This document shows positions 28,201 to 34,200 of a stretch of 64,000 bases of DNA, one piece after another. A program made the position numbers. The stretch comes from Escherichia coli (GTDB taxonomy: Bacteria; Pseudomonadota; Gammaproteobacteria; Enterobacterales; Enterobacteriaceae). Position 1 is the stretch's first letter, and each line of letters opens with the position of its first letter. The stretch lies in the NCBI RefSeq assembly GCF_022846255.1, contig NZ_AP025682.1; one strand, given 5' to 3'.

Positions 28201-31200
28201 GGATGTGCCATTGCAGCTGGCGTCGGTGCCGGAATTTTTTCATCAATGGCAGAAACCGGAGAACGCCTGGTTCGCTGGGAACGGACGCACACACCAGACC
28301 CGGAAAAGCATGAACTTTATCAGGATTCACGCGATAAGTGGCAGGCAGTTTATCAGGATCAGCTGGGGCTGGTTGATCATGGACTGACGACGTCGTTATG
28401 GAAAGCGCCAGGGTTATAGTTTCATTGACAGCCACACCATGATGACCGTGGCTGTTAGTTTTTGAGTATTGGTATTCTCATTTCCCTTCTTTTAGAGCTG
28501 GCTTGTTAAATGCCAGCTTGCAGATTCATCGTTCCATCACCAGTACTATATTCAAGGGGAAATTGCTATTCACGCTGATCAATGCGCTCAAAGGCGATGG
28601 CTTGATGCGAGTGCAGCTGTCATCCTCCGACAAAATGTTTGGCTTTACCCATGCAGCAGGGACTGAATTCGCCGGTGTTGCCCAACTGAAAGCCAGTACC
28701 TTCGCACTGGAACGCGACAACACCGCTGCGCTTACTTACGCGATGCTGCAGTCTGACAGTGAAAATACCACATTGGTAAAAGTGGGAGAGCAATCCATTG
28801 GTGGACTAGCCATGAATGGCGGTACGCTCACGTTCGATACGGATATACCTGCTGCGACGCTTGCGGAGGGATATATCAGCGTCGATACGCTGGTTGTCGG
28901 CGCGGGTGACTACACCTGGAAAGGCCGTAACTATCAGGTAAACGGGACGGGCGACGTGCTTATCGACGTGCCTAAACCGTGGAATGATCCCATGGCGAAT
29001 AACCCTCTGACGACGCTCAATTTTATGGAACACGACGATAGCCATGTCGGCGTTCAACTGGTGAAGGCGCAAACGGTTATTGGATCGGGTGGTTCATTAA
29101 CGTTACGTGATTTACAGGGCGACGAGGTGGAAGCGGACAAAACGTTACATATTGCGCAAAACGGAACGGTGGTCGCCGAGGGTGATTATGGATTCCGACT
29201 CACGACCGCACCTGGTGATGGTTTGTATGTTAACTATGGGCTGAAAGCGCTGAACATCCATGGTGGGCAAAGCTGACGTTAGCCGAACATGGCGGAGCCT
29301 ATGGCGCAACGGCCGATATGTCGGCAAAAATCGGTGGCGAAGGGGATCTGGCAATCAATACGGTACGACAGGTTTCGCTTTCCAACGGTCAGAACGACTA
29401 TCAGGGGGCAACCTACGTTCAGATGGGGACATTACGTACCGATGCGGATGGCGCGCTGGGCAACACCCGGGAACTGAACATCAGCAACGCGGCCATCGTC
29501 GATCTTAATGGATCGACCCAGACGGTAGAGACATTCACCGGGCAAATGGGTTCGACTGTTTTGTTTAAAGAGGGGTCGCTGACGGTGAATAAAGGTGGGA
29601 TCAGTCAGGGCGAACTGACAGGTGGCGGAAACCTGAATGTTACAGGGGGAACACTGGCTATCGAGGGGCTTAATGCACGCTACAATGCGTTAACCAGCAT
29701 TAGCCCAAATGCGGAAGTCAGCCTCGATAATACGCAGGGGTTAGGCAGAGGAAATATTGCCAATGACGGTCTGTTAACGCTAAAAAATGTGACCGGCGAA
29801 CTGCGTAATAGCATAAGCGGGAAGGGTATCGTGAGCGCAACCGCCAGGACAGACGTAGAGCTGGATGGCGATAATAGCCGCTTTGTGGGGCAATTCAACA
29901 TATACCGGAAACAATGGCCTGATGACGTTCAACGCGACGCTGGGCGGCGATAATTCACCCACGGATAAAATGAACGTGAAAGGCGATACCCAAGGGAACA
30001 CTCGCGTTCGGGTTGATAACATTGGCGGCGTCGGTGCACAAACGGTCAACGGTATTGAACTCATTGAGGTTGGCGGTAATTCTGCAGGTAACTTCGCGCT
30101 GACCACCGGAACTGTCGAAGCTGGGGCTTACGTCTACACGCTGGCTAAAGGGAAGGGGAATGACGAGAAAAACTGGTATCTGACCAGTAAATGGGACGGC
30201 GTAACGCCACCGGATACACCAGATCCCATCAATAATCCTCCTCAGCTGGGCGCTGTATAACTGGTTTGATAACAGCGTCAGTTCCGATAACCGTTCTGCT
30301 GACGACTATGATTCTCGCGGTGTGACGGCCTCTGTTGAGGGTGGGTATACCTTTGACGGGGAACATTTAGTGGCAGCGAAGGGACGCTGAATACCTGGTA
30401 CGTCCAGCCACAGGTGCAAATCACCTGGATGGCTGTGAAAGATTCTGACCATACCCGGAAAGACGGAACACGCATTGAAACGGAAGGTGACGGAAACGTG
30501 CAAACGCGACTTGGGGTGAAAACCTACCTGAACAGTCATCACCAGCGTGACAATGGTAAACAGCGTGAGTTCCAGCCTTACATTGAAGCGAACTGGATCA
30601 ACAACAGCAAAGTCTACGCCGTGAAGATGAATGGTCAAACTGTAAGCCGTGATGGTGCGCGTAATCTCGGTGAAGTACGTACCGGGGTTGAGGCGAAAGT
30701 AAATCACAACCTTAGCCTGTGGGGGAATGTCGGTGTGCAACTAGGTGATAAAGGCTGTAGCGATACTCAGGGCATGCTGGGTGTGAAATATAGCTGGTAA
30801 ACCGTATAAGCCGCATGTCGAAGATGCATGCGGCTTAATATTGCCGACTTCAAACGACTTTTAAATCCTCCTTTTTATCCGCGATCGCGGATATCACAGT
30901 GTTTATCCCGTAGAGCGGATAAATATGCTGTGGACGTATGACATGATGAGCTTTCAGAAGATCTATAGCCCAACGCAATTAGCGAATGCAATGAAACTGG
31001 TTCGTCAGCAAAATGGCTGGACGCAGAGCGAGCTGGCGAAAAAAATCGGTATTAAGCAGGCGACAATTTCCAATTTCGAAAACAACCCTGACAATACCAC
31101 GCTCACGACATTTTTTAAGATTTTACAGTCGCTTGAACTCTCAATGACGCTATGCGACACGAAAAATGCCTCGCCAGAATCAACAGAACAGCAAGATCTG

Positions 31201-34200
31201 GAGTGGTAATGCCTAAACTTGTCACTTGGATGAACAACCAGCGGGTAGGCGAGTTAACGAAGTTAGCCAATGGCGCGCACACCTTTAAGTATGCACCGGA
31301 GTGGTTAGCCAGCCGTTATGCCAGACCGTTGTCACTTTCGCTGCCATTGCAGAGGGGGAATATCACCTCTGATGCCGTATTTAACTTCTTCGATAACCTG
31401 TTACCCGATAGCCCGATTGTACGTGATCGGATCGTTAAACGTTATCATGCTAAATCCAGACAACCGTTTGATTTATTGTCAGAAATAGGGCGAGACAGCG
31501 TTGGTGCCGTAACGTTATTACCCGAAAATGAAACCATAACGCGCCCGATAATGGCATGGGAACAGCTCACTGAAGCCAGGCTTGAAGAAGTATTAACGGC
31601 TTATAAAGCAGATATCCCTCTGGGCATGATTAGAGAAGAAAATGACTTTCGCATCTCGGTTGCTGGCGCGCAGGAGAAGACAGCGCTGCTCAGAATAGGC
31701 AATGACTGGTGCATTCCGAAAGGAATAACGCCGACGACGCACATCATTAAATTACCGATTGGCGAAATCAGGCAGCCCAATGCGACGCTCGATCTCAGCC
31801 AAAGCGTTGATAATGAGTATTACTGTCTGCTGCTGGCGAAAGAACTTGGGTTGAATGTGCCGGACGCAGAAATCATTAAAGCGGGAAATGTGCGCGCGTT
31901 AGCGGTCGAACGTTTTGACAGGCGTTGGAATGCTGAGCGAACGGTTTTACTTCGCTTGCCACAGGAGGATATGTGTCAGACATTCGGTTTATATTCATCG
32001 GTGAAATATGAATCAGATGGAGGCCCAGGCATCGCGCGGATCATGGCTTTTTTGATGGGGTCCTGCGAGGCGCTGAAAGATCGCTATGATTTTATGAAGT
32101 TTCAGGTGTTCCAGTGGTTGATTGGCGCAACGGATGGCCATGCAAAAAACTTCTCCGTATTTATTCAGGCTGGCGGCAGTTATCGACTCACGCCATTTTA
32201 CGACATCATTTCAGCATTTCCGGTATTGGGTGGCGCGGAAATACACATCAGCGATCTCAAACTGGCAATGGGGCTTAATGCATCCAAAGGCAAAAAAACG
32301 GCAATCGATAAAATTTATCCGCGACATTTTCTGGCGACAGCAAAGGTGCTGAAATTTCCGCAAGTGCAGATGCATGAAATCCTGAGTGACTTTGCCAGAA
32401 TGATTCCGGCAGCACTGGATAACGTGAAGACTTCATTACCGACAGATTTTCCGGAGAACGTGGTGACGGCAGTTGAAACCAATGTGTTGAGGTTGCACCG
32501 TCGGTTAAGCCGAGAATACGGTATTAAGTAAGATATGGGGTGTGGCCGTTGTTAATGAGCAGGACAATCATGACCGCCAACGGCTGGATTCTCCCTTGGT
32601 TTATGTTGGTGCGCATAATGTATATTATGTTAAATTGAATTTGAGTGATGCGAAGCGATTTTCCAGTCGTCGTTATTACTTCAGGGTTCCAGAACATAAA
32701 GCCTCTCCTCTTTCATAATTGGCCTGTGCATACCGGATATAGGCTGGCTGGTATGCAGGTTTGCCGTTTGCCGCATCTTCCCTGCGTTGATGAGTCAGGC
32801 TGGCAAACCGCGTGCAAATGAACACCCCCTCTTTCCATCAACATTTCAGACAGCTTGCGGGAATGAGTCCACTCCGGTATCGGAAATGGCTAAGCCTCAA
32901 TGAAGCCAGGCGACTGATGCTGAATGAACATTACGATGTCACCACTGCAGCCTATGCTGTCGGTTACGAAAGCTTATCCCATTTCAGTCGGGAATATTCG
33001 CGGATGTTTGGAGAGTCACCTAAGAGAGATATTACCAGGTTAAGAAAGTCTGTCGGTCAGCTTTAATAAACCCTACACTTATCTGTTTAGAGCAATTCCG
33101 TGTTAGTTACACCAGGCAAACATTAACTATGGCTAATGATTTATAGCCATATAAACCATTGGTCGCTCTTGACCTTTCCTGACACTTCCCTTGTTCGCAA
33201 TAATATTCTGTTTAGTCACGGTTTATAAATAACATGCATAATGAAATCGTCATGTTATTTAGCGACATAAAATGTCTTTGCAAATACTCTCTACAACAAG
33301 TGCTGCAATAAACTTGTTGTGATTAGGTGTCCTTGTAATTTAAAGATATTATCGTTCTTCGTGAAATGTAATAACCCTGGAAACTATATTCTCAGGGCAA
33401 CTACCAATTAAGAATGATTCTTGTTTTATAAGCAATAACAGAATGACTTAATTGTTAACTCTCTTTATTCAGCTACTTAAATATAAATTTTGGAGAATTA
33501 TGAAACTCAAACATGTCGGTATGATTGTCGTTTCTGTATTGGCGATGTCGTCTGCTGCGGTAAGCGCAGCCGAGGGTGATGAATCAGTAACGACCACTGT
33601 TAATGGCGGTGTTATTCATTTTAAAGGTGAAGTGGTAAATGCCGCTTGTGCGATTGATTCAGAATCAATGAACCAAACGGTTGAGCTGGGTCAGGTCCGT
33701 TCTTCTCGTCTGGCTAAAGCGGGTGACCTCAGCTCCGCCGTTGGCTTCAATATCAAGCTGAATGATTGTGATACCAATGTTTCCAGTAATGCAGCTGTTG
33801 CATTCCTGGGTACTACTGTCACCAGTAATGACGATACATTAGCGCTGCAGAGTTTAGCGGCAGGCTCTGCCCAAAATGTTGGTATTCAAATTTTGGACCG
33901 TACGGGGGAGGTATTAATACTTGATGGTGCCACTTTTAGCGCTAAAACTGACTTGATTGATGGCACGAATATATTGCCGTTCCAGGCTCGATATATTGCT
34001 CTCGGGCAGTCAGTAGCTGGTACTGCAAACGCAGATGCGACCTTCAAAGTTCAATATCTATAATTCAATCTTAAGGTGGCTATACGTCATCTGAAATTGA
34101 AACAGGGTGTGTGTGGCATGGCTACGCACACCCGAGCAATATACCTATGTTCATCTCATTTTTAATGAGGAATGGTTTTTATTTGGGAGCACTATGAAAA

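Follow-up and report, generated by a model that had tools for sequence, protein, structure and literature searches.

Whether two intact genes and two visible operators add up to a working hipBA module is the question raised by a stretch of 64,000 nucleotides of Escherichia coli DNA (contig NZ_AP025682.1 of assembly GCF_022846255.1), which is referred to as the window in the following. The founding locus of persistence is the hipBA type II toxin-antitoxin (TA) module, whose four-operator promoter underlies the structural model of HipA restraint. In the E. coli-type module, HipA inhibits growth and phosphorylates GltX, and HipB neutralises it. An initial annotation had presented the locus as well characterised and in its canonical position. 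Its identity and neighbourhood stand, whereas the regulatory region does not: a deletion of 67 or 68 bp has reduced four operators to two, and the promoter is gone. Judged from the sequence, an otherwise intact hipBA has almost certainly undergone a 68-bp collapse between operators O3 and O1 that took O2 and the mapped promoter with it. The operon is probably silent or strongly down-regulated, a loss of expression that we infer, and its two palindromes would then be a vestigial HipB-binding pair.

The following features define the locus, where operators and the junction carry no strand.

30876-30893, no strand: operator O4 (TATCCGCGATCGCGGATA), exact TATCC-N8-GGATA, farthest from hipB among the four native operators, unchanged
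30904-30921, no strand: hybrid operator (TATCCCGTAGAGCGGATA), left half from O3, right half and downstream flank from O1
30913-30922, no strand: deletion junction, GAGCGGATAA, a direct repeat common to O3 and O1 with the crossover somewhere inside
30943-31209, + strand: hipB, Xre/Cro-type helix-turn-helix (HTH) antitoxin and repressor of 88 aa with C-terminal W88 (ends ...QDLEW)
31200-31203, + strand: GGAG, Shine-Dalgarno sequence of hipA, 5 nt before the ATG
31207-31211, + strand: TAATG, hipB stop TAA (31207-31209) and hipA ATG (31209-31211) with a 1-base overlap
31209-32531, + strand: hipA, Ser/Thr kinase toxin of 440 aa

Operators were numbered after the O1O2 oligonucleotide of Hansen et al. 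2012 (PMC3376134). Because this oligonucleotide, read as its reverse complement, gives the two palindromes next to hipB, O1 is the operator closest to hipB and O4 the farthest.

Both palindromes match TATCC-N8-GGATA exactly, as first described. A search of 30800-30875, as well as of the rest of the intergenic region upstream of hipB, gave no further operator with up to two mismatches, and the 'at least two' operators of the initial annotation are therefore exactly two. In the whole window the exact motif is found three times against 0.03 expected from shuffled sequence, with at least three copies in 0 of 100 shuffles. Alignments show the window O4 to be identical to the distal operator of K-12 and of strain VCSW5. 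The second palindrome has the sequence of O3 combined with the downstream flank of O1, and is located 21 nt before the hipB ATG, which is the place of O1 in the wild type. The start-to-start spacing of the two is 28 bp, the native spacing of an operator pair. The two visible palindromes are what is left of the native operator array, O4 together with an O3/O1 fusion; the pair on which the literature has worked, O1-O2 next to the promoter, is a different one.

The deletion appears as a clean gap when the window is aligned with K-12, VCSW5 and three further strains, with a length of 68 bp relative to four-operator strains and 67 bp relative to K-12. The missing segment comprises the O3-O2 spacer including the -35 element TTGACT, all of O2, the -10 element, the +1 position and the left half of O1. 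The wild-type layout is TATCCCGTAGAGCGGATAA-GATGTG...TTGACT-(T)TATCC..GGATA-AAACT.ATAA-TATCCCCTT.AGCGGATAA-A..TGC, and that of the window at the junction is TATCCCGTAGAGCGGATAA-ATATGC; the junction-spanning k-mer of the window allele is CCCGTAGAGCGGATAAATATGCTGTGG. Correspondingly, 142 bp separate the autotransporter from hipB in the window, against 210 bp in VCSW5 and 222 bp in K-12. The native operator gaps in K-12 are 10, 21 and 10 bp (Wen et al. 2014, PMC4150777). Since our K-12 coordinates agree with these gaps, the deletion equals exactly one O3-to-O1 period, which amounts to 68 bp (40+28) in most strains and to 67 bp in the K-12 type. It probably arose by slippage or by a microhomology deletion between the 9-10-bp direct repeats (G)AGCGGATAA that form the right halves of O3 and O1. 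A crossover within the shared direct repeat is the signature of such a slippage- or microhomology-mediated deletion.

For comparison, we collected hipBA loci from metagenome contigs and fetched genomes. This survey gave 95 loci with four operators at a spacing of 28/39-40/28, where all sites are exact in 94 and the remaining locus has one mismatch.

The promoter lost with the deletion is defined by a single K-12 hipB transcription start site (TSS), at position 1590504 of NC_000913.2 on the - strand, having 25 reads and a 5' untranslated region of 38 nt (Kim et al. 2012, PMC3415461, Table S1). The -50 to +1 string of this TSS is AGATGTGTTTCCAGATTGACTTATCCTCACTAAAGGATAAAACTTATAATA (Kim et al. 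2012, PMC3415461). On this string, which has the geometry of a textbook promoter, the -35 element TTGACT occupies positions -35 to -30 and the -10 element AAAACT positions -12 to -7. The 17 bp between them are made up by the body of O2, and the +1 A is found at the edge of O1. The whole string falls inside or at the edge of the segment deleted in the window, and in the window CCTTTT and ATCACA stand where the -35 and -10 elements would be. The -35 element TTGACT is kept in 92 of the 95 surveyed natural loci. We also scanned for sigma-70 sites by log-odds, using simple hexamer scoring with the frequencies of the classic compilations, and random 181-nt stretches of the window as background. The top K-12 sites score 9.3, 9.2 and 7.6; all three are located in the deleted segment, two of them on TTGACT. 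The Cappable-seq supplementary data have no entry for the hipB region.

Upstream of O4, K-12 carries a 13-bp insertion (GCGCATCAACGCC-type, L001 4098-4110), corresponding to a point between 30858 and 30859 of the window, that makes an IHF-consensus-like ATCAAnnnnTTA. An IHF site is often cited for hipBA. The K-12-type insertion is found neither in the window nor in 68 of the 95 surveyed loci, and because it is missing from these loci the IHF site is not a conserved feature of the locus.

Two weak sigma-70 candidates and one hairpin remain in the region upstream of hipB.

30841-30869, + strand: weak site TTGCCG-17-AATCCT, upstream of O4, score 5.98 against a background median of 6.12
30902-30929, + strand: weak site TTTATC-16-TATGCT, spanning the junction, score 6.12, the intergenic best, equalled or exceeded by 49% of the random stretches
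30807-30837, + strand: terminator-like hairpin with a 12-bp stem and a 7-nt loop, then TTAATATT, just past the stop of the autotransporter remnant (30798-30800)

The best + strand site of the window thus equals the median best score of random 181-nt stretches, and the hexamer scan gave no replacement promoter above background in the region upstream of hipB. The site TTGCCG-17-AATCCT is the sole candidate that puts both operators downstream of a start, and it is also present in the four-operator strain VCSW5. A consensus promoter and terminator scan likewise returned no + strand promoter in the window. As a test this scanner was discarded in favour of hexamer scoring, as it also finds nothing on the + strand in K-12 and misses the genuine promoter there. 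With nothing on the + strand in either, it cannot separate the window from K-12. A compensatory new -10 element at the junction, where ATATGC (ACTTGC in K-12) yields TATGCT, was considered and rejected as well: 14 of the 95 loci carry the variant, as do strains 2014C-3075 and 2020CK-00188, which have four operators. Because ATATGC occurs in four-operator strains, TATGCT is an ancestral polymorphism and was not made by or after the deletion.

The hairpin has a minimum free energy of -18.9 kcal/mol (z = -3.37), a stability reached by none of 200 shuffles. It is kept in all compared strains and was not called by the consensus terminator scan. By its structure it should limit read-through into hipBA. 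Given the hairpin and the fragmented autotransporter pseudogene upstream of it, read-through is an unlikely stand-in for the promoter.

The autotransporter itself (approximately 28400-30800), which most E. coli carry as one gene of 5.4 kb, is broken into short open reading frames (ORFs) at 29318-29953, 29865-30260 and 30414-30800. The close hipA relatives FCI1 and strain 104 have a different truncation, in which the interior of the autotransporter is joined straight to the terminator hairpin. The autotransporter region is best read as a decay hotspot.

The lengths of HipB and HipA and the TAATG overlap were all found as first reported. A 1-bp overlap of the genes is stated for E. coli K-12 hipBA (PMC3376134, PMC4150777), and GGAG together with TAATG is consistent with translational coupling of hipB and hipA. 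HipB matches the Pfam family HTH_3 (E=4.9e-15). HipA matches Couple_hipA (PF13657, E=2e-27, 96 bits) and HipA_C (PF07804, E=2e-51, 175 bits), both far over the cut-offs, and PDB HipA chains match it at E ~1e-290. Compared with K-12, HipB is identical at 86 of 88 positions (98%; substitutions A73T and N85D) and HipA at 426 of 440 (97%; 14 substitutions). The hipB coding sequence is identical to that of VCSW5.

A HipA alignment was built from the proteins of the window and of K-12 and 62 diverse homologues (33-53% identity), which a search of 1.8 billion representative proteins had returned. Residues G153, K157, K181, D309, H311, N314 and D332 are invariant in all 62 homologues and are all kept in the window. 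The initial annotation had named loss of the kinase catalytic motif as what would speak against it; since the kinase residues are all kept, no such loss is found. The autophosphorylation site S150 is present, and the protein is wild-type at G22, D291, P86, D88, S150, K181, D309 and D332. The comparison with K-12 at the hipA7 positions, which had been proposed earlier, thus returned wild-type G22 and D291. The hipA7 allele (G22S and D291A) and the clinical dimer-interface variants (P86L and D88N) concern the same protein, and the window is wild-type at all four positions. By its residues it is not a hipA7-type allele, and its unusual feature is regulatory (in cis) and not in the toxin protein.

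The nearest hipA allele in complete genomes is that of strain FCI1 (99.5%). Relative to it, the window lineage has three private amino acid changes in HipA and three synonymous ones, which is too small a number to judge relaxed selection. These private changes comprise P262Y (through the double substitution CC>TA), S286C and G344E. Each is at a variable position of the family, and E is found naturally at position 344 among the homologues. We considered that these changes might inactivate HipA or mark its decay and rejected this, as all three columns vary among the 62 homologues. The hipBA coding sequences are apparently functional, and the sequence offers no ground for doubting the competence of toxin or antitoxin. 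Either the deletion happened recently, or some constraint still acts on the genes or they are in use.

Inheritance of the deletion was evaluated on different data sets. A 151-nt junction query was not matched in one piece by any of 5,426 complete E. coli genomes; the full-length matches in these genomes are all two-piece, with a span approximately 68 bp longer than the query. In metagenome contigs a junction-specific pattern was found 0 times, compared with 93 contigs for a wild-type O1-hipB control pattern. A look-up of the exact HipA protein returned four contigs only, and among the matches listed are Logan DRR322657, Logan DRR322658 and NCBI GCA_005387665.1. All three, being independently produced assemblies from two submissions, carry the identical junction. 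DRR322657 equals the window over 7.3 kb with no difference, and GCA_005387665.1 differs from it by a single-nucleotide polymorphism (SNP) at 30084. Because the identical junction is present in three other assemblies, the deletion is neither an artefact nor a one-off. By this evidence the two-operator allele is real, inherited and rare, and marks a small lineage. A literature search, which was not exhaustive, found no description of a natural deletion of the hipBA promoter or operators.

The third relative, DRR322658, equals the window over 5.7 kb except at one position.

31039-31045, + strand: A7 run in hipB, A6 in the DRR322658 assembly (L004 2832)

The missing base cuts HipB after residue 34, within the HTH, and hipA is intact. 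Reportedly, hipB of K-12 is not disruptable with hipA intact. The A6 run is either an assembly error at a homopolymer or a tolerated loss of the antitoxin, and the latter would favour a silent operon. If the frameshift is real, HipA would not be meaningfully expressed in this background.

Taken together, the data are best explained by the probable silencing named at the outset. One O3-to-O1 period has been lost, taking O2 and the whole mapped sigma-70 promoter with it. This leaves O4 and the O3/O1 hybrid directly before hipB with no recognisable promoter and a hairpin terminator upstream. The result would be a cryptic TA module, with transcription off or strongly lowered in this lineage. Several points weigh against this. 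Both ORFs are whole with no sign of decay. The K-12 TSS comes from a single high-throughput dataset with 25 reads, and the consensus scanner overlooks the genuine K-12 promoter. Promoter-like sites with scores of about 6 are compatible with low activity under simple hexamer scoring. Finally, the hipB frameshift of DRR322658 is found in a single automated assembly and is positioned at a homopolymer.

The operon could instead be rewired yet expressed, an explanation that we regard as unlikely but as the main rival. A weak promoter would give low hipBA transcription, and O4 and the hybrid would repress as downstream roadblocks, being less cooperative than four operators. The candidate sources of transcription are TTGCCG-17-AATCCT (30841-30869), TTTATC-16-TATGCT (30902-30929) or read-through of the hairpin. 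An expressed operon fits the condition of the genes, as both ORFs are whole together with their Shine-Dalgarno sequences and the stop/start overlap, no inactivating change is found and the private substitutions are at variable positions. It also fits the operator pair, in which both the 28-bp spacing and the distance to the ATG are those of native loci. Sites resembling promoters, with scores of about 6, are present, but are no better than random sequence, and the junction site would yield a leader of approximately 6 nt without a Shine-Dalgarno sequence. As for the upstream site, the K-12 13-bp insertion splits TTGCCG...AATCCT. Because the insertion lies inside the site in K-12, the K-12 TSS data cannot exclude activity of the site in other strains. 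Yet the same site is present in VCSW5, and four-operator loci nevertheless keep TTGACT (92/95). Furthermore, the sibling assembly having a frameshifted hipB and an intact hipA is hard to square with meaningful expression of HipA.

A more specific form of this explanation is that the two-operator allele is alive and naturally rewired, with low-level transcription from a weak start that precedes O4, while O4 and the hybrid would together form one downstream roadblock of reduced cooperativity. We consider this improbable, and clearly less likely than rewiring in general. If rewiring were true, the noise and the HipA:HipB balance would be altered, and hence the persister frequency. In that case HipA would go unneutralised in the sibling with the frameshifted hipB, a natural strain, and the lineage would be a natural experiment on how operator number sets the threshold behaviour of hipBA.

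That this is a canonical, normally regulated hipBA, with the palindromes forming part of an ordinary array in which other operators were overlooked, agrees with the canonical proteins and genomic position but has next to no chance of being correct: it is already refuted by the lack of more operators at up to two mismatches, by an intergenic region of 142 bp versus 210-222 bp elsewhere and by the loss of O2, -35, -10 and +1 in the alignments, with four operators present in 95/95 comparison loci. An assembly artefact collapsing the repeated operators is just as improbable: although the deletion ends sit in a direct repeat, which is a place prone to mis-assembly, the 10-bp repeat and the 68-bp unit are far shorter than the reads, and the same junction is found in three other independent assemblies from two submissions, one of them with a SNP relative to the window.

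The best characterised relative of the locus is K-12 hipBA (b1508/b1507), for which autoregulation has reportedly been described and structures are said to be available. The window shares with it the genes, the chromosomal position, the 1-nt stop/start overlap, the TATCCN8GGATA consensus and O4, and its hybrid operator carries the O3 sequence. K-12 differs in having four operators that flank or overlap the promoter, with the TSS 38 nt before hipB, whereas the window has two operators and is without O2, -35, -10 and +1. In addition, the 13-bp insertion with the IHF-like site upstream of O4 is present in K-12 and not in the window.

A more distant relative is the HipBA system of Shewanella oneidensis (PMC4150777), whose HipA homologue (4pu3/4pu5) matches by sequence with E=1e-30. 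Here HipB-HipA is likewise autoregulated via four repeated palindromic operators. The palindrome is however GTGTA-N6-TACAC with an equal spacing of 34 bp, one operator is located inside hipB, and the genes are 3 bp apart. This case shows that the number and layout of operators vary between species, with four sites still kept there.

Two metagenome loci are altered in the same regulatory region. OODO01007187.1 (L059) has an independent deletion in an E. coli-type hipBA regulatory region, with -35 and several operators lost and hipB intact. This deletion is larger than that of the window: it joins the coding interior of the autotransporter beta-barrel to the middle of O2, so that the terminator, O4 and O3 are lost while -10, +1 and O1 are kept. 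The contig is single, short and of low coverage, and a chimeric assembly is possible. ULSH01003644.1 (L053) is a four-operator locus with the -35 element TTGACT changed to GTGACT and one O4 mismatch (GCAGATA), the sole such case among the 95 loci. Because of the larger deletion of L059 and the point-mutated -35 of L053, inactivation of the hipBA promoter in cis may recur.

By protein, gene organisation and position, the window locus is to be counted as a member of the E. coli hipBA family, without two regulatory features of the characterised locus: an array of four operators, and a promoter interleaved with it. No new system is involved; the locus belongs to a known system and carries a rare regulatory change, and an intact TA pair need not be active. 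A lineage having both genes whole, with the promoter and half of the operators lost, would represent silencing of a TA module in cis with the proteins untouched. Annotation pipelines would still label such a locus as a functional TA system, and gene presence or absence alone would overstate the number of strains with active hipBA. The lineage, and likewise the sibling with the frameshifted hipB, is a potentially useful natural control for the share of chromosomal hipBA in persistence.

Genomic context was compared with the annotated K-12 and VCSW5 regions. The lsr genes are followed by an autotransporter of the ECSE_1600 family (yneO in K-12), hipB, hipA, a yneL-like AraC fragment and a fimbrial operon, in this order, and a 24-kb syntenic match to E. 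coli chromosomes has approximately 98% identity. In this respect the locus is recognisably the chromosomal E. coli hipBA type II TA module in its usual neighbourhood. The gene lsrK is located approximately 2.8 kb upstream of hipB. Downstream of hipA, an 84-aa ORF at 32812-33066 corresponds to the C-terminal, HTH-containing part of an AraC-family regulator and is the counterpart of the K-12 yneL pseudogene; its equivalents in other strains are annotated as 'missing N-terminus'.

The ATATGC variant provides an in-frame ATG 18 nt before the K-12 hipB start (30925-30942), so that for strains carrying it gene callers return a HipB of 94 aa, as in Logan and NCBI. Because the upstream ATG is without a Shine-Dalgarno sequence, the 94-aa HipB is probably an annotation artefact. 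A further variant, widespread among hipA alleles (strain 104, L010 2009-2017, and other 99.3% matches), has a 2-bp deletion near the 3' end that changes the C-terminus from ...SREYGIK to ...SREWY; the resulting protein of 438 aa is annotated as a normal HipA.

The third exact TATCC-N8-GGATA palindrome of the window (TATCCAGGTCGCAGGATA, 36610-36627) is located within an 883-aa fimbrial usher ORF (35177-37828). Binding of HipB to other promoters has been reported (Lin et al. 2013, cited in PMC5263246). This palindrome may be either a coincidence or a secondary HipB site.

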